DNA from: Escherichia phage SmurfNell
DNA: 64,000 bases
Sequence record: OR896824.1
Direction: 5' to 3' (one strand)
Shown here: positions 4,758 to 43,500 of the stretch, in pieces
How positions within the stretch are numbered: the first letter of the stretch is position 1
Layout of the letters: every line of letters begins with the position of its first letter
Notes under the pieces: generated by a model
What the model was told of the DNA's origin: nothing
Databases searched by the model: none
The model's input: the letters and a program-made list of their open reading frames with translations, nothing else
Translations under genes and position numbers: made by a program

Positions 4758-4786
4758 TTGCTTTCTCCCGTATATATTGGTATAAT
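4758..4786 (+). promoter_or_regulatory. sigma70-type early promoter (TTGCTT-17-TATAAT)
   Basis: -35 TTGCTT and extended -10 TGGTATAAT with 17 bp spacer upstream of phoH. Confidence 0.6.
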
Positions 4787-4859
4787 ATATTTGTAAGTTG
4801 ATAAACAAGATCTTTTTGTTGATCCTCTGTTAGCGAAGTACACTATAGGAGTGTTATTT

Positions 4860-5612
4860 ATGGGAAAAGCACGTCAAAAAAGAGAGAACCGCAATGGTTC
4901 AAGAAAGCGTGGCAACAAGTACGAGAGCAACGTAATTCAAGCAGATTTCTCTGGTGATTACGCCAATCCAGTTGCTAAACCCCTAGTTGGTAAAAACCGT
5001 GAGCAAAAATCATATATCAATATGATCAAGAACAACACAGTGACTGTGGGTATTGGTGAACCAGGTACTGGTAAAACCTTTATTCCATCCGTTCTTGCAG
5101 CTCAGGAACTCGTAGACATTCACTCAGATATTGAGCAAGTGATCCTCGTGCGTCCGAACGAACCTCTAGGTAAATCTCTTGGTATGCTCCCAGGTGATCT
5201 GGCAGAAAAGCTAGAGCCTTGGTTAGAGCCAATAGCTGATGGCATGAAATGGGCAATCGGTGATCACGCCTACAAAGGATATGTCGAACGTCAGAAAATT
5301 AAATTCCTGGCTATCGAACATGCCCGTGGCCGAACTTTCAACAACTCCTATGTAATTGTCGATGAAGCTCAGAATATCTCCGTTGAAGCAATGATCTGTC
5401 TCCTGACTCGTGTAGGACAAGATTGTCGTTTAATTATCTGTGGGGATATAGCGCAGAAAGACATCAAGGGTGATTCAGGTCTAGCACTTCTTATGGAAGT
5501 CTATGAGAAGTATGAAAACTCTCCTTTCTCTATGATCGAACTGATCGACAACGTTCGCTCACCAGAGTCTAAAGCATTCTACGATATCTTTAAGGATATG
5601 GGGAAGGTGTAA
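4860..5612 (+). CDS. phoH: PhoH-like ATPase
   Basis: Walker A GIGEPGTGKTF; ATG at 4860 with AGGAG RBS (track start 4851 is GTG). Confidence 0.8.
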   Translation: MGKARQKRENRNGSRKRGNKYESNVIQADFSGDYANPVAKPLVGKNREQKSYINMIKNNTVTVGIGEPGTGKTFIPSVLAAQELVDIHSDIEQVILVRPNEPLGKSLGMLPGDLAEKLEPWLEPIADGMKWAIGDHAYKGYVERQKIKFLAIEHARGRTFNNSYVIVDEAQNISVEAMICLLTRVGQDCRLIICGDIAQKDIKGDSGLALLMEVYEKYENSPFSMIELIDNVRSPESKAFYDIFKDMGKV

Positions 5613-5613
5613 T

Positions 5614-5856
5614 ATGGGAAACGTCGTACATCTGCACCGCAAAACTAAGATCCACCGTACTTCACTGAGTGCTGCTAATATGATTACACGTAAGGAAGGG
5701 GAAGAAAGTCCTAAGACTACCCTAGCGTGGAAAATTGTAGCCTCTAATCCAAATCGGCCTTTTAATTATAATGAACTTTCAACATCAGTAGATATTCTTC
5801 TGAGGGCGAATGCGAAAGCAAAAGTAATTAATCAAGCCGAAAAACTAGACTGGTAA
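5614..5856 (+). CDS. hypothetical protein
   Basis: 80 aa ORF, start overlaps the phoH stop. Confidence 0.4.
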   Translation: MGNVVHLHRKTKIHRTSLSAANMITRKEGEESPKTTLAWKIVASNPNRPFNYNELSTSVDILLRANAKAKVINQAEKLDW

Positions 5857-5911
5857 TATAGAAGGCCTGGGTATGAAAATATCCGGGCTCTTTTTATCTG
5901 TAAAATTGTAC

Positions 5912-5940
5912 TTGCAAAATGACCCAAAACAAAGTAGAAT
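5912..5940 (+). promoter_or_regulatory. sigma70-type promoter (TTGCAA-17-TAGAAT)
   Basis: -35/-10 hexamers with 17 bp spacer upstream of nrdA; implies the real nrdA start is the ATG at 5979. Confidence 0.45.
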
Positions 5941-5978
5941 ATTTCCTAAATCCTGATAACTACAAAAAGGAAAGCCAA

Positions 5979-8345: not shown

Positions 8346-8355
8346 GAAATTTTAC

Positions 8356-8385
8356 TTGCTAATCGCTACCAGATTTGCTATAATA
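8356..8385 (+). promoter_or_regulatory. sigma70-type promoter ending 5 nt before the HNH start codon
   Basis: TTGCTA-18-TATAAT; ATG at 8391 lies 5 nt downstream of the -10, implying a leaderless transcript. Confidence 0.45.
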
Positions 8386-8390
8386 TCTAT

Positions 8391-8888
8391 ATGAAATTAA
8401 CACAGAGTAGATTAAAAGAGCTAATCTCCTATGACCCTGAAACTGGCGAATTTACCTGGCTCCCAAGAAAAACTTTAGCAAAGCATTTATGGAACGCTAA
8501 AGCAGGAACCTATGATAAATTAGGGTATCTTCGTATAAAAGTTGAAGGAGTTCAATATTTAGCTCATCGCCTAGCCTTCTTGTATATGACTGGAGAAATA
8601 CCAGAAGGAAAAATTGACCATAAAGATACTAATCCGTCTAATTGCGCCTGGGATAATCTCCGTGAAGCCACGAGTTCTCAAAATTCTATGAACTCGTGTG
8701 CAAGATCGGATAACCAGCTTGGAATGAAAAATATTCGTGTAAAAGGCACTTCATTTCAGGTTAGGATAGGCAAAGACGGCAAATCTTATACAAAAACTTT
8801 TAAAACCCTAGAAGAAGCTATAGAATGGAGAGACACCAAACTACTAGAACTTCATGGGGACTTTGCAAACAACGGAGAAGCTAAATGA
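8391..8888 (+). CDS. HNH homing endonuclease (free-standing, between nrdA and nrdB)
   Basis: EGKIDHKDTNPSNCAWDNLREAT HNH motif; C-terminal AP2-like repeat; stop overlaps the nrdB start. Confidence 0.75.
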   Translation: MKLTQSRLKELISYDPETGEFTWLPRKTLAKHLWNAKAGTYDKLGYLRIKVEGVQYLAHRLAFLYMTGEIPEGKIDHKDTNPSNCAWDNLREATSSQNSMNSCARSDNQLGMKNIRVKGTSFQVRIGKDGKSYTKTFKTLEEAIEWRDTKLLELHGDFANNGEAK

Positions 8889-11415: not shown

Positions 11416-11441
11416 AATAGCCCTTCGGGGCTATTATATTT
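11416..11441 (+). terminator. rho-independent terminator
   Basis: TAGCCC-TTCG-GGGCTA hairpin followed by T-rich tract after thyA. Confidence 0.55.
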
Positions 11442-11450
11442 AAATTTCAT

Positions 11451-11479
11451 TTGCTTACTGAGTGAAATTCAAATATAAT
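11451..11479 (+). promoter_or_regulatory. early promoter (TTGCTT-17-TATAAT)
   Basis: consensus hexamers with 17 bp spacer. Confidence 0.6.
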
Positions 11480-11509
11480 ATACTTCTAATTTGACAGAAG
11501 GATTTAATA

Positions 11510-12836: not shown

Positions 12837-12856
12837 TAAATAATTTAAAAATTCAC

Positions 12857-12885
12857 TTACTTAAAGCCCTCGAATTTAGTATAAT
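12857..12885 (+). promoter_or_regulatory. early promoter with embedded inverted repeat
   Basis: TTACTT-17-TATAAT; AAAGCCCTC (12863-12871) in the spacer is complementary to GAGGGCTTT (12904-12912) covering the RBS. Confidence 0.5.
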
Positions 12886-12912
12886 ATTCGTATTGAAAGT
12901 GAGGAGGGCTTT

Positions 12913-13191: not shown

Positions 13192-13207
13192 TTTTTAAAA
13201 AATTCAT

Positions 13208-13236
13208 TTGCTAAACGCTTCAAAATTTCGTATAAT
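13208..13236 (+). promoter_or_regulatory. early promoter (TTGCTA-17-TATAAT)
   Basis: consensus hexamers followed by conserved ATAAATTGA box. Confidence 0.6.
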
Positions 13237-13274
13237 ATATCTCATAAATTGATCAACAAAAAGGAAAACAAATA

Positions 13275-14351: not shown

Positions 14352-15053
14352 ATGAAATTCAAGCCCTTTGGTATGCTGGACATTGAATCTCTAGGTACTC
14401 CAGGAAATTGCGGTACTACTCATATTGCAATGCCTTCTTTCGCTTTTGTAGCGATGCACGGAATTGATAAAGATCCTGATCTGGTATTCGTTACTCTAGA
14501 CGTTCAAGATCAGCTTAATGCGGGTGCTAAGGTAACTGCCTCTACTATTGCATTCTGGATGGATCAAGCTAAAAACAGTCCATCTGCGCTCCATATTATG
14601 GAGGCTCTAAATGGTCGTAATCCTAAGCTGATTGCCTTCCGTGATGGTAAGCATCACTGCACTAATGACGTAGGCTCTAATTATGCTGCCTTCTCTATGG
14701 CTCAGAACATTATGGAATTGTCTCTAGGAGATAATGCTCTGTATTACGGCAATGGCCCAGAGTTTGATATGACAATCTACTCTGCAAATACGTTCCATGC
14801 CGGAACCCATGAAGAAATAGTTCCGTGGAAATTCTGGAACTTAGGTAACGTTCGATCTTTCCGTAATCAGTGGATGCAAGCTGGTTATAGCTATAAAGAT
14901 CTAGAAGCCGAAGGTGCTAGCTGGGCAAAAGCTAAAATGGAAAAGATGGACACCATTCGTTATGGAATCTATCCTGTGAAGCATGATCCAGCATTCGATG
15001 CTTTAGTTGAAAGTTATTGTGTAGCCGTCATGATCGAAAAAATCAAAATTTGA
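14352..15053 (+). CDS. DEDD-type 3'-5' exonuclease-like protein
   Basis: LDIESLG (Exo I-like), YGNGPEFDM (Exo II-like) and HDPAFDA (Exo III-like H-x4-D) motifs. Confidence 0.45.
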   Translation: MKFKPFGMLDIESLGTPGNCGTTHIAMPSFAFVAMHGIDKDPDLVFVTLDVQDQLNAGAKVTASTIAFWMDQAKNSPSALHIMEALNGRNPKLIAFRDGKHHCTNDVGSNYAAFSMAQNIMELSLGDNALYYGNGPEFDMTIYSANTFHAGTHEEIVPWKFWNLGNVRSFRNQWMQAGYSYKDLEAEGASWAKAKMEKMDTIRYGIYPVKHDPAFDALVESYCVAVMIEKIKI

Positions 15054-15054
15054 T

Positions 15055-15083
15055 TTGCTTTCAGCTCCAAAATTCTGTATAAT
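15055..15083 (+). promoter_or_regulatory. early promoter (TTGCTT-17-TATAAT)
   Basis: consensus hexamers plus ATAAATTTGAGAGAAC box. Confidence 0.6.
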
Positions 15084-15123
15084 ATATTCATAAATTTGAG
15101 AGAACAACAAAAGGAAAATAATT

Positions 15124-15999: not shown

Positions 16000-16378
16000 T
16001 AATTTAAAAGACTAGTAAATCGGTAGACGAAAGCCCAAGCATCTTACCTCGCAGCAGCGGTTGAAATACGAGGTTAAATAAGACCGCTGACCATACTATA
16101 AAGTATAATCTATTGGAGATTATGTTTATTACACCAGCCTCTTAAGCTGAACTGTAAAAACGGTCGTTGGTAGTACCAACACAACTTCAAAGATCAACGC
16201 TCAAGTATGAAAGCTGAAAAGTTAAAAGAACTCAAACTTCTAACCTTCTAAAGCTAAAAGATGCAAAGTATTCGTTGATGATTCAAACCCTAGATCAAAG
16301 GTACATGGCTCATAAGATATGGCCTGTGGCGCCTCTAGGCTGTTTATCGGTTCACTAGTCTCTCAATTTAAAAATGTA

Positions 16379-16408
16379 TTTGCTAATTAGTTTAGTTTTC
16401 TATATAAT
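16379..16408 (+). promoter_or_regulatory. early promoter (TTGCTA-18-TATAAT)
   Basis: consensus hexamers plus AAATTGATGAGACGAGG box. Confidence 0.55.
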
Positions 16409-16438
16409 ATATTTTTAAATTGATGAGACGAGGCTATT

Positions 16439-16761: not shown

Positions 16762-17211
16762 ATGAAGGCAGCTTTGCTTCTAATAGCTGCCCTAACCTAT
16801 AGCTTCAATAGTCATGCTACCTACGACTCAAAGCAGATTGATTGCATTGCAAAAAATATCTACTTCGAAGCACGAGGTGATGGCACAAAGGGAATGATTG
16901 CAGTTGCACAGGTTACTAAAAACCGTGTAAACTCCGGTAAATTCCCTGATTCTTACTGTAAAGTAGTATATCAGTCTAACCAATTCAGCTGGACAGCTAA
17001 AAAACCTAGGGTTGATAAAACAGATGAGACTTGGCAAGTTGCTAAGAACTTAGCTAGAGTGATATACTACGTTGATTTACCACAAGATCCAACACAGGGG
17101 GCGTTATACTTCCATAGCGGTAAAGATAAACCGTACTGGACAAAGAAGTTTAAGAAAACAACGAAGATTCAAGGCCATACGTTCTACAAGCCTGTGGTTA
17201 AGAAAACTTAA
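16762..17211 (+). CDS. secreted cell wall hydrolase (SleB-like)
   Basis: Signal peptide MKAALLLIAALTYSFNSHA; IAKNIYFEARGD...AVAQVTKNRV...QFSW pattern of the cell wall hydrolase family; ATG at 16762. Confidence 0.55.
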   Translation: MKAALLLIAALTYSFNSHATYDSKQIDCIAKNIYFEARGDGTKGMIAVAQVTKNRVNSGKFPDSYCKVVYQSNQFSWTAKKPRVDKTDETWQVAKNLARVIYYVDLPQDPTQGALYFHSGKDKPYWTKKFKKTTKIQGHTFYKPVVKKT

Positions 17212-17219
17212 AAATTCGA

Positions 17220-17248
17220 TTGCTTAAAGACTTAAATTTCTGTATAAT
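17220..17248 (+). promoter_or_regulatory. early promoter (TTGCTT-17-TATAAT)
   Basis: consensus hexamers plus ATAAATTAATGAGAGG box. Confidence 0.6.
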
Positions 17249-17279
17249 ACTTTCATAAATTAATGAGAGGAAGCGAAAT

Positions 17280-17450: not shown

Positions 17451-17893
17451 TGGAAGAAAATATTCTAAATGTTTTGCGTAGGGCTTTGCAGGAATCTAAG
17501 ATTGATGGCTCTGATAAAGAGGTAGCTAAAAGCTACCAGACCATAATCGAAGATCTTCAGCGTGTTGATAAAGACTTCATTACTTCTGAACAGTTTGTGT
17601 CTTATCTCAAAGCTCAGCTGAAAAGCATTAATCAGACGAAAGCTAAACTTCATGGTCAAGACCTTGATAATTATAGCTTGCAGTCTGCTCAGTATGAATA
17701 TATACTGAACAAATGGCTACAACAGTATCTGCCGCCTCAGCTTTCTGATTCTGAGATTCGCAAATACTTTGCAGAATTAGTTAAGTTGAACCCTGGGATT
17801 ACGAAGAGTATGCTGATGAAAGCGATTAAGGAAGAATTCCCTGGTCGTTATGACGGTGGCATCGCTGCTCAGGTTGCTGGCGAATTTAACTAA
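17450..17893 (+). CDS. hypothetical protein
   Basis: 147 aa ORF. Confidence 0.5.
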   Translation: MEENILNVLRRALQESKIDGSDKEVAKSYQTIIEDLQRVDKDFITSEQFVSYLKAQLKSINQTKAKLHGQDLDNYSLQSAQYEYILNKWLQQYLPPQLSDSEIRKYFAELVKLNPGITKSMLMKAIKEEFPGRYDGGIAAQVAGEFN

Positions 17894-17901
17894 AAATTGA
17901 T

Positions 17902-17930
17902 TTGCTAAACGCTTCAAAATTCTGTATAAT
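17902..17930 (+). promoter_or_regulatory. early promoter driving a non-coding region
   Basis: TTGCTA-17-TATAAT; no ORF of 60 aa or more follows for about 850 nt. Confidence 0.6.
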
Positions 17931-17936
17931 AGATTC

Positions 17937-18789
17937 ATAAATTAGAGAACAGCGAGCCGATTACGCTGAGTGAGTTTAGTGATTCCTACTAGGATAGCTA
18001 CTCCACTGAATAGAGTCGGTGAGTTGGAGACTAGTAAGTACTCTGAGAGAGGCTACGAGCTAACGCTTATTGCTATTGATAGGGAACTGAAAATCTGCGG
18101 AAAACTCGGGAGCTGTCCCGAAATCTCGTAAACTCTTCTCTAGTTTATGTTAGTGGGGTGTCGAACTGACTTATGTGATAACACTGCCGTCCTAGTATAA
18201 ACGGTAATATCAAACCGTAACTGGTGGAAGATGCAGGTTCGAATCCTGCGGTCGGAAAGAATCAGATAACTCGGGCTTATACCGGATAAGCATTCGCTGC
18301 TGTAGTACATACTATGACGGTTCAGGAGGTACGCCTCCTGATCAGTATTAGGTTAGAATCGAAACAGCTAAACCACGAGGAAACCTGACGGCCTCAACCA
18401 AACTCGGAACTCGGGATCACTGCCTAGTGTGTACCCCGTTTAACCTGAGACTAGGCATCCAGCTTCGCATCGAAAATCGGAGGTGCGATTCTAACAGACC
18501 GCGTGAATATGAGAGTGGGAAACGCTGACATGAGAGATGTCACTAATGGTGCCCAATAGTACAGGTAATTCGCGATAATTCCTGTTGAGCGGCAGCAGTA
18601 GGCTGGGAGTCATGACCTAAGCCTAACCGAGTTCTTCACATACGGAGAACATAACCACAAAGTCACCCTGACTTAAACTGGAAGATATTGTCTGACGGAA
18701 GGGCTGCAGAGCTTAATCTGAGGGGGCTGACCCTACCTACCGTCGGGTATCTTTAAGAGCTTTTATAAGAGTTCTTAAAAATACCTAAA
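17937..18789 (+). ncRNA. promoter-driven structured non-coding region (candidate RNA gene or tRNA precursor leader)
   Basis: No ORF of 60 aa or more on either strand; many GC-rich hairpins; tRNA-like T-arm GCAGGTTCGAATCCTGC at 18233-18249 without a matching acceptor stem. Confidence 0.3.
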
Positions 18790-18864
18790 CGGGGTGTAGT
18801 CTAAGGGATAGGCAGGAGTCTTCTAAATTCCTTTATGCAGGTTCGAATCCTGTCACCTCGGCCA
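18790..18864 (+). tRNA. tRNA-Arg (anticodon UCU)
   Basis: Hand-folded cloverleaf: acceptor CGGGGTG/CACCTCG, anticodon loop CTTCTAA, T-loop TTCGAAT, encoded CCA. Confidence 0.65.
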
Positions 18865-18890
18865 ATTTTATTAACTGCTAGGAAAATAAA

Positions 18891-19091
18891 GTGAAAACAC
18901 GATATATAGTAAAAGTAGTAGGTGAACATTCACAAGTAAATACCACCGATGTTACAGCGCTAGCATTTGAAGTAGTCTCCGGTATAGTCATATTTCATAA
19001 CGGAGATATCAAAGCTCCTGAATTTGCTGTGGATGCTAGCCTGTTTATTTCTGCAACTAAAGTAACTGTAGTAGCTAACCCTTCTAAATAA
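18891..19091 (+). CDS. hypothetical protein
   Basis: 66 aa ORF with GTG start directly upstream of the SPFH gene. Confidence 0.3.
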   Translation: MKTRYIVKVVGEHSQVNTTDVTALAFEVVSGIVIFHNGDIKAPEFAVDASLFISATKVTVVANPSK

Positions 19092-19102
19092 TAAGGAAAT
19101 AT

Positions 19103-20047
19103 ATGTTTACTAAAAACACTAAAGAACTGACTTCCGATCAAAAAGTAATTCGTACTATTAAACGTTGGGGCGTTGGTGCTGTAGTTGGTCTTGGCGCTCT
19201 TATTCTGGCTCTCAATTCCTATACAGTTGTTCAGGACGGTACGGTTAAAACTCAGACTTTCCTGGGTAAAGTTAGTCCTAATCCTGTATTGCCGGGGTTC
19301 CATATTGTCAACCCATTCGCCTCTTTTGATACTTTTAGTACGAAAGATATTTCTATGAAACTGGATAAACTTCAGGTTCCTAGCCAGGATAAGTTTAAGT
19401 CCACTGTTGACATTACCGTTATGTTGCAGTTTGATGGTGCTAAAGCTCCTATGAACCGTGTTAACGCAGGTACTCAGGATCAAGCTCTGAACAAGTACGT
19501 TGAAGAGAAGATGCTATCTACGATTCGTGAGTTTGGTAAGTCTGTACCAAAAGCACAAGATCTGTTCGACGCTAAGATTCAGGCTCAACTGCAAACTGCT
19601 ATTCAGCAAGAAGTAGAAGAGTACGCGCGTCCTTATGGTTACACGGTTAAGCAAGTATTCCTTCAGGATATTACTCTGCCACCTGTAATCATGGAACAGG
19701 TACAAAACACAAAAGTTCGTGAAGAACAAGTTAACGCCGCTAAAGCTGAATTGGCTCGTGTTGAACAAGAAGCACAGCAGAAAGTTAAGCAAGCTGAAGC
19801 TGATCGTTCTGCTCGTGAAAACATGGCAGTAGCTAACGAACGTGACGCAGATGCTAAACTGTACGCAGCTAAGAAAGAAGCTGAAGCTAACGCCGCGCTG
19901 CAACGTACCATTACTCCTGAAATGATTCGTTGGAAGCAGCTGGAAGTTGAAATGCTTCGTGCTGAAAAATACCAAGGTGGTGTACCGCAGACTATTGTTG
20001 GTACTGGCTACGATGGTCAAATGATCATGGATATGCGTAACAAGTAA
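19103..20047 (+). CDS. SPFH/band-7 (prohibitin/HflK-like) membrane protein
   Basis: N-terminal TM helix WGVGAVVGLGALILAL, central SPFH-like region, C-terminal Ala/Glu/Lys-rich coiled coil. Confidence 0.55.
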   Translation: MFTKNTKELTSDQKVIRTIKRWGVGAVVGLGALILALNSYTVVQDGTVKTQTFLGKVSPNPVLPGFHIVNPFASFDTFSTKDISMKLDKLQVPSQDKFKSTVDITVMLQFDGAKAPMNRVNAGTQDQALNKYVEEKMLSTIREFGKSVPKAQDLFDAKIQAQLQTAIQQEVEEYARPYGYTVKQVFLQDITLPPVIMEQVQNTKVREEQVNAAKAELARVEQEAQQKVKQAEADRSARENMAVANERDADAKLYAAKKEAEANAALQRTITPEMIRWKQLEVEMLRAEKYQGGVPQTIVGTGYDGQMIMDMRNK

Positions 20048-20106: not shown

Positions 20107-20259
20107 TATTTAAGGCAAAAGAAAAGCCCATAAGTTATTCAACTAAGGTCTTTAGTATTTAATTCTTTAATTCTTTAGAATCATATACTATTATTGTAGC
20201 AACAACGTGCTACCACTAAATGCCTTGAGATTTTTCCACTAAAAAGTTTAAAAATTCGA

Positions 20260-20288
20260 TTGCTTGAACGCTAAATTCTCTGTATAAT
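20260..20288 (+). promoter_or_regulatory. early promoter (TTGCTT-17-TATAAT)
   Basis: consensus hexamers plus ATAAATTTGAGAGAGG box. Confidence 0.6.
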
Positions 20289-20318
20289 ATATTTATAAAT
20301 TTGAGAGAGGAATCAAAT

Positions 20319-22053: not shown

Positions 22054-22100
22054 AGTAGTTATAGCCCTCGCTTAGAGGGCTATTATACAGAAATTTTCAC

Positions 22101-22129
22101 TTGCTTAATATAGAAAATTTCTGTATAAT
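22101..22129 (+). promoter_or_regulatory. early promoter (TTGCTT-17-TATAAT)
   Basis: consensus hexamers plus ATAAATTCGAGAGAGG box. Confidence 0.6.
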
Positions 22130-22159
22130 ATATTTATAAATTCGAGAGAGGAATCAAAC

Positions 22160-22456
22160 ATGAAACGCATTGTACTTGCATTGACTCTAGTATCTACTTC
22201 TGTATTTGCTGCTCCGCAACAGGAACTTTGTCAAGTTCAGGTTTGTAATAAGCTAGAACGATTTACTCTAAACATTTGGTCCCATATTAAAGATAATATG
22301 GGTGAACAGTGTTTTGATATTGTTCTGCCAAAAGAACAGGCTATTCCTGGTGCTGTTCTTAGCTCAGAATCACGTTGGTGGCAGGGTTCTTCTATCAATC
22401 CAACTAAGAAGTCAGTGACACGTATCAAACAAGTATATCAGTGCAAGGTTCAGTAA
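22160..22456 (+). CDS. secreted/periplasmic hypothetical protein
   Basis: Signal peptide MKRIVLALTLVSTSVFA; several Cys. Confidence 0.5.
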   Translation: MKRIVLALTLVSTSVFAAPQQELCQVQVCNKLERFTLNIWSHIKDNMGEQCFDIVLPKEQAIPGAVLSSESRWWQGSSINPTKKSVTRIKQVYQCKVQ

Positions 22457-22464
22457 AATTTCAC

Positions 22465-22493
22465 TTGCTTAATGTCGAAATTTTCTGTATAAT
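22465..22493 (+). promoter_or_regulatory. early promoter driving a tRNA operon
   Basis: TTGCTT-17-TATAAT, 15 nt upstream of tRNA-Ser. Confidence 0.6.
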
Positions 22494-22507
22494 ATATTCA
22501 TAAATTC

Positions 22508-22601
22508 GGAAGATTAACCCTAATGGTAAGGGAGCTGTTTGCTAAACAGCCAGTAGCTGTGGAGACACGGTGTGCCAGTTCGAATCTGGCATCTTCCTCC
22601 A
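22508..22601 (+). tRNA. tRNA-Ser (anticodon GCU), class II
   Basis: Acceptor GGAAGAT/ATCTTCC, anticodon loop TTGCTAA, long variable arm, T-loop TTCGAAT, CCA. Confidence 0.7.
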
Positions 22602-23749: not shown

Positions 23750-23779
23750 CTCCTCCAAGCAGAAATTTTAAAAATGTAC

Positions 23780-23809
23780 TTGCTTTTTACTTAAGATTTC
23801 TGCTATAAT
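23780..23809 (+). promoter_or_regulatory. early promoter (TTGCTT-18-TATAAT)
   Basis: consensus hexamers plus ATAAATTGATGAAGGAG box. Confidence 0.55.
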
Positions 23810-23839
23810 AGTTATATAAATTGATGAAGGAGTTAACGA

Positions 23840-24115: not shown

Positions 24116-24151
24116 CTGATATAGCACTGAGCAAGTTCTTTAAAATTTGAC

Positions 24152-24180
24152 TTGCTCAGTCCTTCAAATCTTGATATAAT
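24152..24180 (+). promoter_or_regulatory. early promoter driving a tRNA operon
   Basis: TTGCTC-17-TATAAT upstream of tRNA-Tyr. Confidence 0.55.
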
Positions 24181-24243
24181 AGTTATCTAATTTGGAAACA
24201 TATTTAAAAGTGTTTAAACTAGTATTTGAATATTTCTAAATAT

Positions 24244-24595: not shown

Positions 24596-24874
24596 ATGCT
24601 GATGCATCCTGAAAACTTCTTTATTTACTGTGCGGATAAGTCATTAAAACGCAGAATTAACAAAGTCTACCATTATCGTGCTAGTCAACAGCCTTATGTT
24701 TATGCTTTTGATGGAGAAACCATTCCACTAAAGCAGTTGGCATGTGATTACATGGTCTTGAAGAACTTTGATGAGACAAAGATCTCAAGCGTTCATAATC
24801 GACAGAATCCATTAACGTGGAAGTATAAGAAGAAAAAGAAAGGCATCAAATTTCTGAAAAATGTAGTTGCTTAA
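24596..24874 (+). CDS. hypothetical protein
   Basis: ATG at 24596 after GAAGGAG RBS, 12 nt after the tRNA-Phe CCA. Confidence 0.5.
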   Translation: MLMHPENFFIYCADKSLKRRINKVYHYRASQQPYVYAFDGETIPLKQLACDYMVLKNFDETKISSVHNRQNPLTWKYKKKKKGIKFLKNVVA

Positions 24875-24895
24875 ATCCTTAAAGTTCTGTATAAT
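24867..24895 (+). promoter_or_regulatory. early promoter (TTGCTT-17-TATAAT)
   Basis: consensus hexamers plus ATAAATTGAACTGGAGAAG box. Confidence 0.55.
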
Positions 24896-24924
24896 TATTA
24901 CATAAATTGAACTGGAGAAGCAAC

Positions 24925-26302: not shown

Positions 26303-26550
26303 AATTTAGGTTTCTGCTTCCTAGAGAACTGACGCCTAGATAAACAAGGCGATGAGTTTCCGGCCGGTTCTAGTCGCTGAAAATCCTCCCGACCAGGTAG
26401 GTGTAAGTAAACGAAAGTTTACTTATTAAGTAAGTCCGACACATCGGCGGGTGTGTTCTAGTACTTAAAGAAGGTCTCGCAAACTTTCTCGCTAGCATGA
26501 GTTGATAGCTCGGTGACTTACCTAATAAGTAAATTTATTAAAAAATGTAG

Positions 26551-26579
26551 TTGCTATTTAGCTTAATTCTCTGTATAAT
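26551..26579 (+). promoter_or_regulatory. early promoter driving a tRNA operon
   Basis: TTGCTA-17-TATAAT upstream of tRNA-Pro. Confidence 0.55.
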
Positions 26580-26611
26580 ATATTTTATAAAGTGAGTTAA
26601 CAAAGAATATT

Positions 26612-27601: not shown

Positions 27602-27961
27602 TTGCAAATGCAATTATCAAGCAAGGTTCAAGGCTACTTCGGTCATGTAACAATGGAGTTCGCTATCTCTAAAGGTTGGGACTTCGAACAAGATTTAGCT
27701 GAGTTCTACAAAGATATTGATCTGAACGTACCGTACATGGGACTCTCTACTGGTCAGGAAATCACAGAAGCCGATGTATTCAAGGCAAGTCAAGGTGAGA
27801 TAACACCTAGTTTTGCCGAGTTCTGGTTAGGAATTACTCTGAAAGATGATGCACCGGATGGTGGTGTGGTTATGCAGAGTATGCACTCTGGAAGCTCTGA
27901 TTACCTTTTCGTTAGCGACGTTAAGGAAATACAAGAAATCTGCAAAAATGTACTTGCTTGA
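27602..27961 (+). CDS. hypothetical protein
   Basis: 119 aa acidic ORF. Confidence 0.5.
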   Translation: MQMQLSSKVQGYFGHVTMEFAISKGWDFEQDLAEFYKDIDLNVPYMGLSTGQEITEADVFKASQGEITPSFAEFWLGITLKDDAPDGGVVMQSMHSGSSDYLFVSDVKEIQEICKNVLA

Positions 27962-27982
27962 TACTTAATTTCTTGTTATAAT
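27954..27982 (+). promoter_or_regulatory. early promoter driving a structured leader and tRNA operon
   Basis: TTGCTT-17-TATAAT; transcript would start with the TTGATGAGGAGAAATCCTCATCAA hairpin. Confidence 0.55.
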
Positions 27983-28018
27983 ATTTATATAAATTGATGA
28001 GGAGAAATCCTCATCAAA

Positions 28019-28400: not shown

Positions 28401-28413
28401 AATTAGAGGAAGC

Positions 28414-28875: not shown

Positions 28876-28946
28876 TTGATGGAATTGGCATACATACCGT
28901 CCTTAGAAGTCGGGTTTTGAGGGTTCGAATCCCTTGTCACGCACCA
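28870..28946 (+). tRNA. tRNA with UAG anticodon (Leu-type), class I architecture
   Basis: Acceptor GCGTGAT/GTCACGC, anticodon loop CTTAGAA, 5 nt variable loop, A73, CCA; scaffold resembles the tRNA at 23314; 5' end overlaps the HNH stop. Confidence 0.5.
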
Positions 28947-28963
28947 ATTTTGTAGTAAACAAC

Positions 28964-29063
28964 GGAAGAGCAAATCGATAGGTGACGAAAACCGCTTGGA
29001 AAGTGGCTGACTTGTGAAAGCAGGCTTGAGAGTTCGAATCTCTCTTCTTCCGCCAAACAATAG
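28964..29063 (+). tRNA. tRNA-like element, about 100 nt, fold unresolved
   Basis: Complementary termini GGAAGAG/TTCTTCC, T-arm GAGAG-TTCGAAT-CTCTC, G73, CCA; too long for a standard tRNA. Confidence 0.3.
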
Positions 29064-29069
29064 AAGATA

Positions 29070-29151
29070 GGACGTAGTGGTACGTAACCGGTCTTGAAAA
29101 CCGGCCCGCTGTAGTGATACGGTGATGGTTCGACTCCATTATCTTCTGCCA
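29070..29151 (+). tRNA. tRNA-Ser (anticodon UGA), class II
   Basis: Acceptor AGAAGAT/ATCTTCT, anticodon arm CCGGT-CTTGAAA-ACCGG, long variable arm, G73, CCA. Confidence 0.7.
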
Positions 29152-29466
29152 AATCTTGAAGTATGCCGGAATCGGTAGACGGGGCTTCCTAAAGGGCGTA
29201 AGAGGAACATCCACTCCTCATAAGATACCCGAAAACGAGGCTGAGATAAATGGTCTATCTCGTGAAGGTTCAAGTCCTTCTGCTTCTTGATATTCAATGG
29301 CTCAAAGAGTAACGGTGCACCTTTCTAGAGAATTTTCTGGGCGAGAATCCAGAAGTAATCAACTAGTTGTTAGTGTGATGAGTTTCGGAGAGCCGCCACA
29401 ATTGAAGTCTTTAGAATGGGTATCGCCCTTTAGCCCCTCCGAAAGGGATAACTAGAGATTTCAATT

Positions 29467-29543
29467 GTGGCTATATCATAATTGGTTAATGATCCTGATT
29501 GTGAATCAGGCCTATGTGGATTCGAATTCCACTAGCCACCCCA
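29467..29543 (+). tRNA. tRNA-His (anticodon GUG)
   Basis: Acceptor GTGGCTA/TAGCCAC, anticodon arm CCTGA-TTGTGAA-TCAGG, C73, CCA. Confidence 0.75.
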
Positions 29544-29549
29544 AATATT

Positions 29550-29624
29550 GCGTCCTTATTTCAATGGAAAGAATGTAAAGCTACGAACTTTACGATCGGG
29601 GTTCGATTCCCTGAGGATGCACCA
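29550..29624 (+). tRNA. tRNA-Arg (anticodon ACG)
   Basis: Acceptor GCGTCCT/AGGATGC, anticodon arm GTAAAG-CTACGAA-CTTTAC, A73, CCA. Confidence 0.75.
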
Positions 29625-29648
29625 ATTAACTTATATAGGAAATAAAAT

Positions 29649-29849
29649 ATGGCTGATTTCTGCAAAGAATGCTCTATCGATATGTGGGGCAAAGATACTG
29701 GTGATCTTTCTGGTCTGATTACAGAAGCCGAAGTTAAAGAAGGCTATGGTGCTGTTGTAATCTGTGAAGGTTGTGGTATTATTCGTGTTGATCATAATGG
29801 TAAACGTCTAGAAGAACCAGATCCAATTGCCACGGTTCCTGTAGAATAA
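29649..29849 (+). CDS. zinc-ribbon small protein
   Basis: CKEC...CEGCG motifs. Confidence 0.45.
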   Translation: MADFCKECSIDMWGKDTGDLSGLITEAEVKEGYGAVVICEGCGIIRVDHNGKRLEEPDPIATVPVE

Positions 29850-29856
29850 AAATTAT

Positions 29857-29932
29857 TGGGATGTAGATCAATTGGCAGATCGTCGGCCTCTGACTCCGAA
29901 GGTTCCACGTTCGATCCGTGGCATCCCAGCCA
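29857..29932 (+). tRNA. tRNA-Gln (anticodon CUG)
   Basis: Acceptor TGGGATG/CATCCCA with U1-A72 and G73, anticodon loop CTCTGAC, CCA. Confidence 0.65.
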
Positions 29933-29938
29933 AATACT

Positions 29939-30014
29939 TGGAGAGTAGTGTAACGGTTAGCACAACGGCCTTTGACTCCGTTAATGGTAGGTTCGATTCC
30001 TCCTTCTCCAGCCA
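29939..30014 (+). tRNA. tRNA-Gln (anticodon UUG)
   Basis: Acceptor TGGAGAG/TTCTCCA with U1-A72 and G73, anticodon loop CTTTGAC, CCA. Confidence 0.65.
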
Positions 30015-30020
30015 ATTTAT

Positions 30021-30095
30021 GCGTGATTAGTTCAGTGGCTAGAATAACTGGCTTCCAACCAGTAGACACGAGTTCGACTCTCGTATCCCGCACCA
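30021..30095 (+). tRNA. tRNA-Gly (anticodon UCC)
   Basis: Acceptor GCGTGAT/ATCCCGC, anticodon arm CTGG-CTTCCAA-CCAG, T-loop TTCGACT, CCA. Confidence 0.7.
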
Positions 30096-30111
30096 AATAT
30101 AAGAAAACGTT

Positions 30112-30333
30112 ATGGACGTTTTTGAGTTTCGTAATAAAAACCCTAGTAGACGAGTTTTAATTATTGGTGAAACATATCGAGCTTATGAGCAAGAAGATGG
30201 TTCGGTTTTATTAAATGATGAAAAGCAAGGCTATAGTTTTCATCCAGAAGAAACATATGAGGAATTTCGTACTAAGTTTCTTTTACCAGACTGGCTAGCA
30301 ATAGCTGAGCAAAGAGAACCCGAAGATGGCTGA
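30112..30333 (+). CDS. hypothetical protein
   Basis: 73 aa ORF. Confidence 0.45.
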   Translation: MDVFEFRNKNPSRRVLIIGETYRAYEQEDGSVLLNDEKQGYSFHPEETYEEFRTKFLLPDWLAIAEQREPEDG

Positions 30334-30488
30334 TAATCTAAAGCTAAAGGTAGATAAACAAATGAAGTGCGTTGAGGTTGAGTTGGGTGAAGAACGTTTA
30401 AAACTCTCCTTCGAATTCTTACAACAGTTGGCTATGACAGTAATGTCTGATAAGTCTCCTGTATTTGAAAAAGAAATTCCGTTGAAAT
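30321..30488 (+). CDS. small hypothetical protein (55 aa)
   Basis: ORF overlapping the previous stop, below the track cutoff. Confidence 0.3.
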
Positions 30489-30500
30489 AACGGGTTTATT

Positions 30501-30575
30501 GCTCCTAAAGCATTGCTGGCGATGCAGTTGCCTTGTAAGCATCTGAACCGGGTTCGATTCCTGGTGGGAGCACCA
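30501..30575 (+). tRNA. tRNA-Thr (anticodon UGU)
   Basis: Acceptor GCTCCTA/TGGGAGC, D-arm GCAT..ATGC, anticodon loop CTTGTAA, T-loop TTCGATT, CCA. Confidence 0.7.
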
Positions 30576-30590
30576 AATTTAAAAATTCAT

Positions 30591-30620
30591 TTGCCTTCTC
30601 TCTTATTTCTTGTTATAATA
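30591..30620 (+). promoter_or_regulatory. early promoter (TTGCCT-18-TATAAT)
   Basis: consensus hexamers plus ATAAATTAATGAGAGGG box. Confidence 0.55.
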
Positions 30621-30649
30621 TTTATATAAATTAATGAGAGGGAAACCAA

Positions 30650-30943
30650 ATGAAACGTTATCTTTCTGTCGTGTTCCAAACTGGTGGTCAACGCTACACT
30701 TATGAATTTCCTGAGTCCTGGAAAATTAAAGAAGGTGATCAAGTTGTTGTATTAACACCTCGTGAAGGCTTCAAAGTAGTAACGGTTAAACAAGTATTTC
30801 CAAAAGATCACGAACCATCTAAGTCTATTCAGTACAAGATGATTCATGGTCTAGTTCGTAAAGTACCACGAACTGAGGTAGAAGTAGATAAGACTGGTGA
30901 AGCTAAATACCAGTATACTTCTTACTTAGATGAAATGATGTAA
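30650..30943 (+). CDS. hypothetical protein
   Basis: 97 aa ORF. Confidence 0.5.
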   Translation: MKRYLSVVFQTGGQRYTYEFPESWKIKEGDQVVVLTPREGFKVVTVKQVFPKDHEPSKSIQYKMIHGLVRKVPRTEVEVDKTGEAKYQYTSYLDEMM

Positions 30944-30944
30944 T

Positions 30945-31020
30945 GCTCTGATAGTTCAACAGGTTAGAACAGGCGACCGATAATCGTCAAATCTTGGTTC
31001 GATCCCAAGTCGGAGTACCA
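30945..31020 (+). tRNA. tRNA-Ile (anticodon GAU)
   Basis: Acceptor GCTCTGA/TCGGAGT, D-arm GTTC..GAAC, anticodon arm GGCGA-CCGATAA-TCGTC, T-loop TTCGATC, CCA. Confidence 0.65.
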
Positions 31021-31026
31021 AATTAT

Positions 31027-31099
31027 AGTTAGTTGGCAGAGCGGTTATGCACCTCCTTCATACGGAGCGACTACAGTGGTTCAAATCCACTACTAACTA
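31027..31099 (+). tRNA. tRNA with CAU anticodon (third copy), no encoded CCA
   Basis: Perfect acceptor AGTTAGT/ACTAACT, anticodon loop TTCATAC, T-arm AGTGG-TTCAAAT-CCACT; followed by ACTA rather than CCA. Confidence 0.45.
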
Positions 31100-31470
31100 C
31101 TAAACAGAGGATCAGGTAATTGTACCAGATCCTGCTGAGAAGAGAGTCCACATTCTATAAATGGCCGGGCGTGACAGCAGGAAGTAGACTGCAACTCCAT
31201 GCTATCCAGGAGTATAAATGTAGAAGCTAAGACTTTAGATAGCCATTGTCTTAGCGTGAGCAATCACGTAGTTGCAACAGACCTGGAAGATCGCAACGTT
31301 AAAATCAAAGTTCCAGTGCTTATTTATCTAATCGAGACCATCAATCTCACCGGAATGCTAGCACCCCAACAGTAGCTAGTGATTAGATAATAAGCAAGCC
31401 TGCCTTCCAGTTTTTATCTTGCTTCTGGGTTAACAAAAAGCTGAGCCAAATTCTAACATCAGGGAGATCT
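31100..31470 (+). other. structured non-coding region downstream of the tRNA island
   Basis: 370 nt without an ORF of 60 aa or more; higher GC than flanks; hairpins such as GGATCAGG...CCAGATCC. Confidence 0.25.
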
Positions 31471-32919: not shown

Positions 32920-32936
32920 TTTCATAAATAATTCAT

Positions 32937-32965
32937 TTGCTAAAACCCTCTCCTTTTGATATAAT
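32937..32965 (+). promoter_or_regulatory. early promoter with embedded inverted repeat
   Basis: TTGCTA-17-TATAAT; CCCTCTCC in the spacer is complementary to GAGAGGG at the RBS. Confidence 0.5.
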
Positions 32966-32995
32966 ATTTATATAAATTGATGAGAGGGCTTTGAA

Positions 32996-34977: not shown

Positions 34978-35063
34978 CATCAAGTCAACTTACTAGCAAA
35001 ATAATAATGACAAAGCCCAGCCTGCACTTTTGCGACTGGGCTATTTTTGTAATAAAATTTTAG

Positions 35064-35092
35064 TTGCATAGATGCCCAAACTTTTGTATAAT
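35064..35092 (+). promoter_or_regulatory. early promoter (TTGCAT-17-TATAAT)
   Basis: consensus-like hexamers. Confidence 0.5.
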
Positions 35093-35123
35093 ATGTTTAT
35101 AGATTGAGGCAAGAGGATTAAAT

Positions 35124-37912: not shown

Positions 37913-37976
37913 TTGCCTAAAATTCTTCTTGACAACGACAAAATTTTGTGCTCCAGAAGTGATCTTTAAAAACACG

Positions 37977-38005
37977 TTGTAATTTTCCTCTAGAATTAGT
38001 ATAAT
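37977..38005 (+). promoter_or_regulatory. promoter with embedded inverted repeat
   Basis: TTGTAA-17-TATAAT; CCTCTAGA in the spacer is complementary to TTAGAGGAGG at the RBS of the holin gene. Confidence 0.45.
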
Positions 38006-38029
38006 GGTAATGGTTAGAGGAGGTTACAA

Positions 38030-39588: not shown

Positions 39589-39602
39589 TATAAAAAAGTA
39601 GT

Positions 39603-39631
39603 TGACTTTCCACTGAAATTTTTATATAATA
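39603..39631 (+). promoter_or_regulatory. early promoter (TTGACT-17-TATAAT)
   Basis: near-consensus sigma70 hexamers. Confidence 0.6.
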
Positions 39632-39663
39632 TTTGTATAAATTGAATCAGAGGAGTTTCACAA

Positions 39664-40364: not shown

Positions 40365-40397
40365 AACCCAGATCTTAGCTGATCTGGGTTTTTTATT
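40365..40397 (+). terminator. rho-independent terminator
   Basis: ACCCAGATC...GATCTGGGT hairpin followed by TTTTTATT. Confidence 0.65.
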
Positions 40398-40399
40398 AC

Positions 40400-40428
40400 T
40401 TGCTTTCTGCTAAAAATTTTGATATAAT
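40400..40428 (+). promoter_or_regulatory. early promoter (TTGCTT-17-TATAAT)
   Basis: consensus hexamers plus ATAAATTGATGAGAGGAG box. Confidence 0.6.
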
Positions 40429-40459
40429 ATATGTATAAATTGATGAGAGGAGTATCACA

Positions 40460-42071: not shown

Positions 42072-42277
42072 TGAAGAGATTACTACTATTATCAGTACTA
42101 ATACTAGCTGGATGTGATTCCTACGACGATAATATGAGATTTACTGCAGAAGATACAAAACACTTATGTGATGTAGCTGGAGGTGAGCTAGATTATTCCA
42201 GTATTCAAATTGGACTCACAAAAGGTATATTCTACGATAGTTATACTATTACATCCACATGTGTAAGGAATAAATAA
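42071..42277 (+). CDS. small lipoprotein
   Basis: Signal peptide with lipobox LILAGC. Confidence 0.5.
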   Translation: MKRLLLLSVLILAGCDSYDDNMRFTAEDTKHLCDVAGGELDYSSIQIGLTKGIFYDSYTITSTCVRNK

Positions 42278-42861
42278 TGAAAGTTAAATTCTGGAGTGAA
42301 CTCCACTTAGACCACCCAGGGATTCTTCGTTTTCGCCCCTGGTTTAAGAACATGAAAGAGCACGATGAGTATATCCTAGATACTTTGTCCAAGCACATTG
42401 GCAAGCGTACAAAACTTGTGCTGCTAGGAGATAGTGCCGTGGGGCGAGAAGGGTTGGCCAAGTTGAAGTCGGTTATCCACAACGTGCCTAACCAACTAAT
42501 TATGGGAAACCACGATGCTGAGCGTCAGGGTCTGCATATTAAAGATCTTGTAGACGTTTATGATGATATTCAGGCTCTAGGTAAGCAAACAGGTGGTGGC
42601 AAGAAGTTTTGGCTGTCACATTGTCCATTGCACGAAGCAGAACTTCGTGGTAGGCTAAACATTCACGGACATGTGCACACCAATTCTGTACGTGACCAAC
42701 GCTATATCAACGTCTCCTTTGAAATGAGTAAGACACCTATTTCCTTGGAAGATATCGTATCTGGCAAGTTTCAGACGTGGAACAAGATTGTTGATCCAGT
42801 AACTGGTGTTGTATCTGAAATTGATGCTGGCGATTTGGCGATGGGAGTATACGATGTTTGA
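42277..42861 (+). CDS. calcineurin-like metallophosphoesterase
   Basis: LVLLGDS, MGNHD and GHVH motifs. Confidence 0.55.
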   Translation: MKVKFWSELHLDHPGILRFRPWFKNMKEHDEYILDTLSKHIGKRTKLVLLGDSAVGREGLAKLKSVIHNVPNQLIMGNHDAERQGLHIKDLVDVYDDIQALGKQTGGGKKFWLSHCPLHEAELRGRLNIHGHVHTNSVRDQRYINVSFEMSKTPISLEDIVSGKFQTWNKIVDPVTGVVSEIDAGDLAMGVYDV

Positions 42862-42963
42862 TTTTGATGGAATGACTCGTGATATAGTTGTAGCAGCAGC
42901 AATAATTGTTGTTGTTTCTTTCTTACTTGGCGTAGGAATAGGTATTTTATTATAAAAATTCAG

Positions 42964-42992
42964 TTGCTAAAATACCTTAATTTCTGTATAAT
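42964..42992 (+). promoter_or_regulatory. early promoter (TTGCTA-17-TATAAT)
   Basis: consensus hexamers plus ATAAATTGATGAGAAGGAA box. Confidence 0.6.
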
Positions 42993-43022
42993 TACTTTAT
43001 AAATTGATGAGAAGGAATCAAA

Positions 43023-43454
43023 ATGCAAAAGATTGATAAAGCACTTTTAATCGCAACAGCAGATAAGTTTGAGCAAGTTAAAGCTACTTTTAAGGCAGTC
43101 TTTCAGTCCTATGTTCAAGACAAATCTAACCCTATTTCTGAGCGTTTGATGATGTGGGAATGTTTTGCTTGCAATGCTCTGCTAATTTCCGATTATAATG
43201 GAGAAGTATCTGAGGAATTGCATGAGATCTTTATTAATGAGGATACTCCACGCTATCAGTTAGTGAACTTCCAAGATCTAGCTGAGCAAGTTATTCCTGA
43301 TGATCTTTGGGACAAGTATTACGGTGATCCTGAAGAAGATGGTATGGAACCTGAGAAGTGCATCGAACTGATCTGTAAGGATCACATTGAAATTGCTGAG
43401 AAATTTGAGCTAGTATTTGCTTCTGAGTTCTCAGGTTTCGTTAACGATTGGTAA
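43023..43454 (+). CDS. hypothetical protein
   Basis: 143 aa ORF. Confidence 0.5.
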   Translation: MQKIDKALLIATADKFEQVKATFKAVFQSYVQDKSNPISERLMMWECFACNALLISDYNGEVSEELHEIFINEDTPRYQLVNFQDLAEQVIPDDLWDKYYGDPEEDGMEPEKCIELICKDHIEIAEKFELVFASEFSGFVNDW

Positions 43455-43471
43455 GTAAATAAAAAATTCAG

Positions 43472-43500
43472 TTGCTTCTAGCTTTAAAATTCTGTATAAT
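43472..43500 (+). promoter_or_regulatory. early promoter (TTGCTT-17-TATAAT)
   Basis: consensus hexamers plus ATAAATTAATGAGAGAGG box. Confidence 0.6.

Follow-up and report, generated by a model that had tools for sequence, protein, structure and literature searches.

The early promoters of bacteriophage T5 are one of the best-studied promoter families, and the feature examined here, an extended promoter consensus with a conserved downstream box that recurs through a 64,000-nt stretch of Escherichia phage SmurfNell (OR896824.1; this whole stretch is called the window below), is already known and is a correct re-discovery of that family, made from the letters of positions 4758-43500. In the T5-like phage AKFV33, Niu et al. 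(2012; PMC3326045) describe 32 promoters in which TTGCTw and TATAATA are separated by 17-18 bp, and also list AAAAATT at -43 and a '+1 region (TAAATT)', the latter as a matter of AT-richness or DNA curvature only, with no division into a transcription start and a Shine-Dalgarno (SD) sequence and no comparison of promoter classes. An ATATT discriminator common to all known early promoters was reported by Klimuk et al. (2020). The GenBank record of T5 (AY543070) carries these promoters as 75-bp features with historical names, and those annotated in it as P11, P13a/b, P14a/b and P15a/b/c have the same sequences as copies in the window.

One member of the family, N25, serves both as the standard 'T5 promoter' of expression vectors and as a model of promoter escape. 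The content of Gentz & Bujard (1985) and Kammerer et al. (1986) is taken here second-hand, as related in PMC12464699 and PMC7472727. According to these accounts, the N25 DSR/antiDSR studies (Kammerer et al. 1986; Hsu et al.) concern the same element, +1 to +20, which sets the rate of escape and the ratio of abortive to productive synthesis; when +3 to +20 are replaced, full-length RNA falls about 10-fold, abortive synthesis goes up and escape has a half-life of 45 instead of 3 min (Kammerer et al. 1986; Hsu et al.; via PMC12464699). As related there, this work dealt with one promoter in vitro, whereas the element described below is family-wide, seen in no class but the early one and kept in phages of different host genera.

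The T5 early promoters P-N25, P-K28a, P11 and P13-P15 have the same A-tract, TTGCTw, 17-bp spacer, TATAAT, ATATTy and ATAAATT(T)GAGAGAGG start as the copies in the window, which are their syntenic orthologs and 76-98% identical to them even at non-consensus positions. Unlike T5, a Tequintavirus, SmurfNell has an Epseptimavirus-like genome of about 80-90% DNA identity, and a few of its copies have other cargo downstream (e.g., a different homing endonuclease at 8391). The N25 sequence that we take to be that of the pQE vectors (their 'T5 promoter'), a 70-mer, is 100% identical to T5 63048-63117, and its box, ATAAATTTGAGAGAGG, is identical to that of the window copy at 20295-20310, which is what the comparison with expression-vector promoters proposed in the sequence-only reading of this DNA comes to.

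Copy number and anatomy of the promoters

A megablast of positions 16000-24000 matches 536 phage records, with Escherichia phages TrudiRoth and SuperGirl at the top (96-98% identity), both classified as Demerecviridae, Markadamsvirinae, Epseptimavirus. Judged by its sequence, the window covers the early genes of a T5-like coliphage (Demerecviridae, Epseptimavirus-like). Its gene order matches the T5 early region, in reversed orientation relative to the T5 record, and runs from PhoH through nrdAB, DHFR, thymidylate synthase, RNase H, the tRNA block (30 tRNA genes at 18790-31100, all on the + strand), dNMP kinase, holin/endolysin and phosphatases to the pre-early A2/A1/dmp block, llp and the receptor-binding protein. 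An Rfam scan of the whole window returned tRNAs only; at the box it matched none of the known leader or riboswitch families.

Regular-expression and weight-matrix scans find 27 full, strong copies of the promoter in the window, with the consensus AAAAAtt-N3-TTGCTw-17-TATAAT-ATATTy-ATAAATTgAtGAGAGG. The -10 hexamers of 24 of them lie inside 4758-43500, the other three being at 46561(+), 61678(-) and 2050(-), so that the 'more than 25 copies' first claimed for that span are right for the window as a whole and slightly too many for the span itself; three partial copies are found at 49033(+), 54571(-) and 4024(-). Once all copies are aligned, the box remains conserved beyond chance. Its 16-mer, ATAAATTGATGAGAGG, occurs 13 times with at most 3 mismatches against 1.19 expected, and 0 of 100 shuffles reach 13; the upstream 16-mer AAAAATTCATTTGCTT occurs 21 times against 2.6 expected, a count likewise reached by no shuffle. 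Taking every TTGNNN-16..18-TATAAT on both strands, whatever comes after it, gives a list of 32 sites that is blind to the box, and a perfect ATAAATT stands in register at 17 of these, with at least 6 of its 7 bases at 22, compared with about 0.02 perfect occurrences expected from base composition. In view of both this list and the excess over shuffles, the box is therefore real.

The non-template strand of T5 N25 reads TATAATAGATTCAT from -12 to +2 (Klimuk et al. 2020), which puts +1 at the A of CATAAATT; if the copies are aligned with N25, the box would make up the first 16 transcribed nucleotides of each copy, with the predicted +1 at its start. Numbered in this way, the 27 copies have an A-rich block near -43 (A at -45 to -42 in 23-25 of them, T at -40 in 25), which matches the AAAAATT of Niu et al. 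(2012), and a -35 hexamer whose columns follow TTGCTT in 27, 27, 26, 25, 23 and 18 copies, with TTGC kept in 25-27. The spacer is 17 bp long in 26 copies and 18 bp in one, and the -10 hexamer is present in 27/27, in part a product of site selection on that hexamer. In the discriminator ATATTy, A at -6 and T at -3 are each found in 24 copies and T/C at -1 in all 27, and the box follows the -10 at a distance of 6 nt in 25 copies and of 7 nt in 2. The columns of TAAATT at +2 to +7 are conserved in 24, 23, 25, 24, 22 and 25 copies, those of the weaker purine run at +9 to +16 in 13-20. The view that the box is as conserved as the hexamers is thus nearly correct for +1 to +7 and fails for +9 to +16. 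C is nearly absent across +2 to +18, with 0-3 occurrences per column, and even interchange of A and T is rare at +2 to +7 (A and T number 25 and 0 at +4, 1 and 25 at +7); specific bases are therefore selected, and not merely AT content. In the mRNA copies, the start codon lies at +22 to +29 in 18 of 20, most often at +25, and since GAGAGG occupies +11 to +16, with the ATG about 8 nt later, the whole is a fixed-length cassette with a 24-nt leader, in which the box ends in the ribosome-binding site just as had been proposed.

The best T5 matches of the window promoters are collinear with them, and at 46 non-consensus columns these orthologs have an identity of 0.76-0.98, against an average of 0.41 for paralogs within the window. 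Purifying selection thus acts on each copy as a locus of its own, and the orthology of the copies to annotated T5 promoters upholds their assignment as early promoters of a T5-like phage. A Klebsiella Sugarlandvirus, with a dNMP kinase 45% identical, is random relative to the window at the non-consensus columns, yet keeps the full architecture, ATAAATT included. Counted as exact TATAAT-N6-ATAAATT matches per ~30-48 kb, T5 has 9 copies, TrudiRoth 11 (10 with coordinates), Sugarlandvirus 7, Proteus phage PM135 7 and Vibrio phage Bennett 8. Vibrio phage D432 has no exact match to this pattern; at 16598-37097, at least 9 of its promoters have a near-identical 30-nt segment, TATAAT-ACTTGT-ATAGAATGAAGAAACGGA. 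This segment is a lineage-specific counterpart of the T5 box, more uniform than the box is in T5-like phages. The N25 70-mer has 2674 matching places in 567 phage records, and the N25 ortholog of SmurfNell is situated outside the window, past its left end (the TrudiRoth copy is at 44248(-)).

Promoter linkage and class restriction of the box

The sequence-only reading also gave the box a role at the RNA level, in ribosome loading or RNase processing, and for its AU-rich half this is not supported. The register of ATAAATT is fixed to the -10 and not to the ATG, which is found at +33 in promoter 13231, at +35 in 15078 and at +68 in 4781; the first two keep the box with their SD and ATG placed 10 nt farther downstream. 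Promoter 22488 keeps ATAAATTC although tRNA-Ser begins at +9 and no SD is present, and the box also stands ahead of the tRNA clusters of 24175 and 26574 (tRNA-Tyr at +58 and tRNA-Pro at +27, respectively) and of a 256-nt non-coding RNA (27977), so the same consensus does serve mRNAs and tRNA operons alike. In the TrudiRoth annotation, ATAAATT with at most 1 mismatch is found upstream of 3 of 64 internal starts, compared with 13 of 13 promoter-proximal ones, a set selected on the box, and one of the 3 internal cases (35490) is the ortholog of promoter 30614 with its -10 decayed to TATTAT. Folding of 20 first-cistron 5' ends and of 49 windows around internal ribosome-binding sites revealed no difference in accessibility from SD to AUG (predicted mean probability of being unpaired 0.56 for promoter-proximal and 0.52 for internal sites; Mann-Whitney p=0.25). 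Because of its fixed distance to the -10, its presence before tRNAs and a non-coding RNA, its rarity at internal starts and the equal accessibility, ATAAATT is to be counted as part of the promoter rather than of the ribosome-binding site. The purine-rich half is promoter-linked too: a GAGG-type SD precedes 9 of the 13 promoter-proximal starts and only 9 of the 64 internal ones (p=1e-4), which mostly have AGGA or GGAG, and, judged by eye from the sequences, +9 to +16 are still purine-rich in copies where they are not the SD.

Among T5 promoters, the box is found in the early P-K28a, P31A, P31B, llp and P11-P15, and is missing from the late P-G25 and P-J5, from P-K28b and from the pre-early P-H22. 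In TrudiRoth, two promoter-like sites lie among the structural genes, neither with a perfect box, whereas 5 of the 7 in the D-gene early region have one, the N25 ortholog among them, and in the window the promoters 38000 (holin) and 4024(-) are without it. The box thus marks the early class only. The late P-G25 (T5 26014-26088, -) is like the early promoters in being a strong sigma70 promoter with a very short leader and an SD within the first 12 transcribed bases (ATG at about +21), and differs from them in its -35, TTGATA, and in having neither the ATATTy discriminator nor the ATAAATT start, as it reads TATAAT ATTGTT ATTAAAGAGGAGAAATTAACTATG. This leader, ATTAAAGAGGAGAAATTAACTATG, is presumably the origin of the 'RBSII' ribosome-binding site of the pQE vectors. 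Late promoters have, in other words, the short-leader design of the early ones minus the ATAAATT start. Inside the early region, the holin/endolysin operon has its own conserved promoter, with a G-rich discriminator and no box. This arrangement, shared with T5, TrudiRoth and Sugarlandvirus, suggests that the lysis genes are timed separately.

Interpretation of the box

The copies are very probably T5-type early promoters that depend on host sigma70, and their box the initial transcribed sequence joined to the SD of the first cistron. In such a cassette, the A-tract at -45 to -40 (UP-like), the -35 TTGCTw, the 17-bp spacer with its conserved AAATTTCTG 3' part, the -10 TATAAT and the AT-rich discriminator ATATTy would lead up to a transcription start at the A of ATAAATT. 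Positions +1 to +8, ATAAATTg, would be an initial transcribed sequence owned by the promoter and, together with the purine-rich, C-poor +9 to +16, would allow quick escape of a very tightly bound RNA polymerase, whilst GAGAGG at +11 to +16 would double as the SD of the first cistron, with the ATG about 8 nt on at +25. The copy number of the box, its register, composite nature, promoter linkage, T5 orthology, class specificity and deep conservation are directly supported by the present comparisons; its escape function in SmurfNell would carry over from the N25 experiments, and the spacing to the ATG points to GAGAGG acting as SD. The role in promoter clearance, which had also been suggested at the outset, has been demonstrated by experiment for the N25 version of this sequence (Kammerer et al., as related in the accounts cited above), and the copies have the features of the N25 DSR, i.e., location at +1 to +20, fixed register with the -10, and a non-template strand that is AT-rich and then purine-rich.

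Some points weigh against this interpretation. The escape literature credits AT- and purine-richness, and no specific sequence, whereas the rarity of A/T swaps at +2 to +7 (at +4, A in 25 copies and T in 0) makes composition alone an insufficient explanation. The strong late promoters P-G25 and P-J5 have no box, which is therefore no general requirement of strong sigma70 promoters. In addition, the +1 of SmurfNell is extrapolated from N25, and a literature search for a T5 transcription-start-site or RNA-seq study returned nothing useful.

Base-specific conservation in excess of AT-richness would also be in keeping with a class-marking element, by which ATATTy-ATAAATT lets a phage factor (the RNA polymerase-binding gpT5.026, the D5 DNA-binding protein or some other protein) tell early from pre-early and late promoters and shut the early class off. 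We consider this possible, though rather unlikely, and it is compatible with, and additive to, a function in escape. The distribution of the box agrees with it, as the box is in T5 early promoters and not in the late P-G25 and P-J5, P-K28b or the pre-early P-H22, a perfect one is found at 0/2 sites of the late region of TrudiRoth and 5/7 of its D-gene region, and the holin and nrdD promoters of the window have none. Klimuk et al. (2020), who report the mechanism of the class switch as unexplained and ATATT as common to early promoters, observed that gpT5.026 cuts the binding of RNA polymerase to the -12 to +2 strand 8-fold, and the homogeneous ACTTGT-ATAGAATGAAGAAACGGA of D432 is as expected from co-evolution with a lineage-specific factor. 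The box has no known binding protein, however, and the maintenance of ATAAATT in phages of four host genera fits a conserved property of host RNA polymerase equally well. That positions -6 to +8, ATATTy-ATAAATT, are a base-specific signature of the early class, read for shut-off by a phage factor or a modified RNA polymerase, is a proposal in which we place only little confidence; such a signature might work through contacts with sigma region 1.2/2 or through a TANNNT-type re-capture of sigma.

A translational enhancer, in which the AU-rich 5' end AUAAAUUGAU recruits ribosomes to the first cistron (e.g., through S1 or a standby site), is unlikely: most mRNA leaders are indeed 24 nt long, AU-rich, weakly structured and terminated by a strong SD, but the register of the box follows the -10 and not the ATG, it is kept before tRNAs and a non-coding RNA, only 3/64 internal starts have it upstream, and accessibility is no better than at internal ribosome-binding sites (p=0.25). 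Slightly harder to believe is a sigma70-dependent promoter-proximal pause. TAAATT at +2 to +7 fits TANNNT and could re-capture sigma region 2, with a pause near +17; its T at +2 is present in 24 of 27 copies, its A at +3 in 23 and its T at +7 in 25, and an analogous -10-like element of lambda pR' pauses RNA polymerase at +16/+17 (PMC4005639). Against this, TAAATT, lying 14 bp downstream of the true -10, matches TATAAT at only 4/6 positions, the in vitro studies of N25 report 2-10-nt abortive RNAs and rapid escape and mention no pause product near +17, and a literature search yielded no report tying the native initial transcribed sequence of N25 to such a pause. Several promoters have no terminator before them, so read-through RNA would carry the box, which is also situated between tRNA clusters; cleavage of AAAUU within it could then separate transcription units or release tRNAs. 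RNase E prefers RN/WUU, which AAAUU fits. Such processing is nevertheless very improbable, the motif being trivially common in AT-rich RNA and a single-base register with the -10 being needless for a cleavage site. It is hardly credible, lastly, that the similarity of the copies stems from recent duplication or gene conversion of a promoter cassette that moves about as the PeSL elements of T4-like phages do. The many near-identical copies per genome, and the ~30 identical bases shared by nine copies in D432, might recall such a cassette, but window paralogs are less alike at non-consensus columns than syntenic T5 orthologs are (0.41 against 0.76-0.98), and in comparison with Sugarlandvirus these columns are randomised while the consensus columns persist. 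For the lineage of SmurfNell, concerted evolution or a mobile cassette is rejected on the first of these comparisons.

Individual copies, their surroundings and significance

The full copies and two box-less controls are collected in the table.

Table. Promoter copies of the window and box-less controls (+1 predicted)
Promoter	Position	Strand	Box and downstream features
Early promoter 4781 (-45 to +16)	4748..4808	+	Variant start sequence GTAAGTTGATAAAC; PhoH-like gene, ATG at +68
Promoter, degenerate box	8346..8406	+	ATGAAATT; HNH homing endonuclease ATG on predicted +1
Promoter	11441..11501	+	CTAATTTGACAGAAGG; ATG +25; terminator hairpin immediately upstream
Promoter, -35 TTACTT	12847..12907	+	Weak box ATTGAAAGTGAGGAGG; ATG +22
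Promoter 13231	13198..13259	+	Box displaced +1 (C ATAAATTGATC); separate SD AAAGGAA; ATG +33
Promoter 15078	15045..15105	+	ATAAATTTGAGAGAAC; actual SD AAAGGAA farther downstream; ATG +35
Promoter	16370..16430	+	TTAAATTGATGAGACG; ATG +25
Promoter	17210..17270	+	ATAAATTAATGAGAGG; ATG +26
Promoter 17925	17892..17952	+	ATAAATTAGAGAACAG; then ~850 nt without convincing open reading frame up to tRNA-Arg
Promoter, T5 P15a ortholog	20250..20310	+	ATAAATTTGAGAGAGG, the N25 box of pQE vectors; ATG +25, NadR-like gene
Promoter	22091..22151	+	ATAAATTCGAGAGAGG; ATG +25
tRNA promoter 22488, T5 P15b ortholog	22455..22515	+	ATAAATTC; tRNA-Ser from +9; without SD half
Promoter, T5 P15c, 18-bp spacer	23770..23831	+	ATAAATTGATGAAGGA; ATG +25
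tRNA promoter 24175, T5 P14a	24142..24202	+	CTAATTTGGAAACATA; tRNA-Tyr +58, then Glu, Trp, Phe
Promoter, T5 P14b	24857..24917	+	ATAAATTGAACTGGAG; ATG +24
tRNA promoter 26574, T5 P13a	26541..26601	+	Box displaced +1 (T ATAAAGTGAG); tRNA-Pro +27
Promoter 27977, T5 P13b / RNA2H	27944..28004	+	Structured non-coding RNA; box ATAAATTGATGAGGAG pairs into 5' hairpin (predicted)
Promoter 30614, T5 P11	30581..30641	+	ATAAATTAATGAGAGG; ATG +25
Promoter, perfect box	32927..32987	+	ATAAATTGATGAGAGG; ATG +25
Promoter	35054..35114	+	ATAGATTGAGGCAAGAGG; ATG +26; T5 ortholog identity 0.98 at non-consensus columns
Promoter, -35 TTGACT	39592..39652	+	ATAAATTGAATCAGAGG; ATG +28
Promoter, perfect box	40390..40450	+	TTG start at +26
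Promoter	42954..43014	+	ATAAATTGATGAGAAG; ATG +25
Promoter	43462..43522	+	ATAAATTAATGAGAGA; ATG +27; box extends beyond 43500
Weaker copy 46561, -35 TTGACG	46528..46588	+	Start CAAAAGTT; ATG +29; T5.023 promoter ortholog; outside 4758-43500
Full copy 61678	61651..61711	-	ATAAATTAAACAGAGG; ATG +24, 88 aa; by synteny, probably drives the llp superinfection-exclusion lipoprotein gene
Full copy 2050	2023..2083	-	ATAAATTTGAGAGGAG; ATG +23
Box-less control, holin/endolysin promoter 38000	37967..38027	+	TTGTAA-17-TATAAT GGTAAT GGTTAGAGGAGG; GTG start
Box-less control 4024	3997..4057	-	TTGACA-17-TATAAT AGTAGT CTTAGTTAGAGAAGGAG; precedes 624-aa open reading frame

The TrudiRoth gene syntenic with the 624-aa reading frame downstream of 4024(-) is an anaerobic ribonucleotide reductase. 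At 8346-8888(+), between nrdA and nrdB, a 165-aa HNH homing endonuclease (MKLTQSRLKELISYDPETGEFTW...) has its ATG (8391) exactly on the predicted +1 of a TTGCTA-17-TATAAT-ATCTAT-ATG promoter, which suggests that its mRNA is leaderless; at the same nrdA/nrdB site of TrudiRoth, another endonuclease begins with TTG behind a normal SD. The transcript of promoter 27977 (27989-28244(+)) contains no open reading frame and has a very strong predicted fold (-91.5 kcal/mol, z=-6.45), in which the box, GAUGAGGAG, and CCUCAUC would form a 9-bp 5' hairpin (there is one A-C mismatch in the T5 stem); its position corresponds to 'RNA2H' of T5, a stable RNA downstream of P13b. The ~850 nt that follow the full consensus promoter 17925 (17937-18790(+)) have no open reading frame of more than 56 aa and, at 18186-18257, a borderline Rfam match to tRNA (29.3 bits against a gathering score of 29) with no ARAGORN call, and may encode degenerate tRNA-like or stable RNAs.

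Farther along the window, 49400-50300 and 54290-54530 contain dense arrays of short direct repeats (at least 8 copies resembling GTCGGATTTGCACA and 5 resembling AATGAGAATGATTCGCATTT), along with inverted repeats of 56-70 nt, about 4 kb apart, that contain the DnaA-box-like TTATCCACA. These arrays are probably the counterpart of the injection-stop-signal region of the T5 first-step-transfer DNA. At 61651-61730, the putative llp promoter of the minus strand and the beginning of the receptor-binding protein gene (ATG 61728, +) lie back-to-back, giving the two divergent genes a common control region of ~60 bp.

To what has been learned from N25, the additions of this work are modest. One is a clean division of the box into a promoter-linked start and a special GAGAGG-type SD, within a fixed 24-nt leader. 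Others are that ~30 independent loci per genome preserve single bases and not AT content alone, that this base-level conservation spans phages of Escherichia, Klebsiella, Proteus and Vibrio, and that the box is restricted to the early class. This restriction bears on the temporal switching of T5, its discriminator part having already been hinted at by Klimuk et al. (2020). If the box were indeed an early-class signature, lineage variants of the D432 type would reflect co-evolution with the factor that reads it, and there would be a concrete handle on the unexplained switch from early to late transcription in T5.

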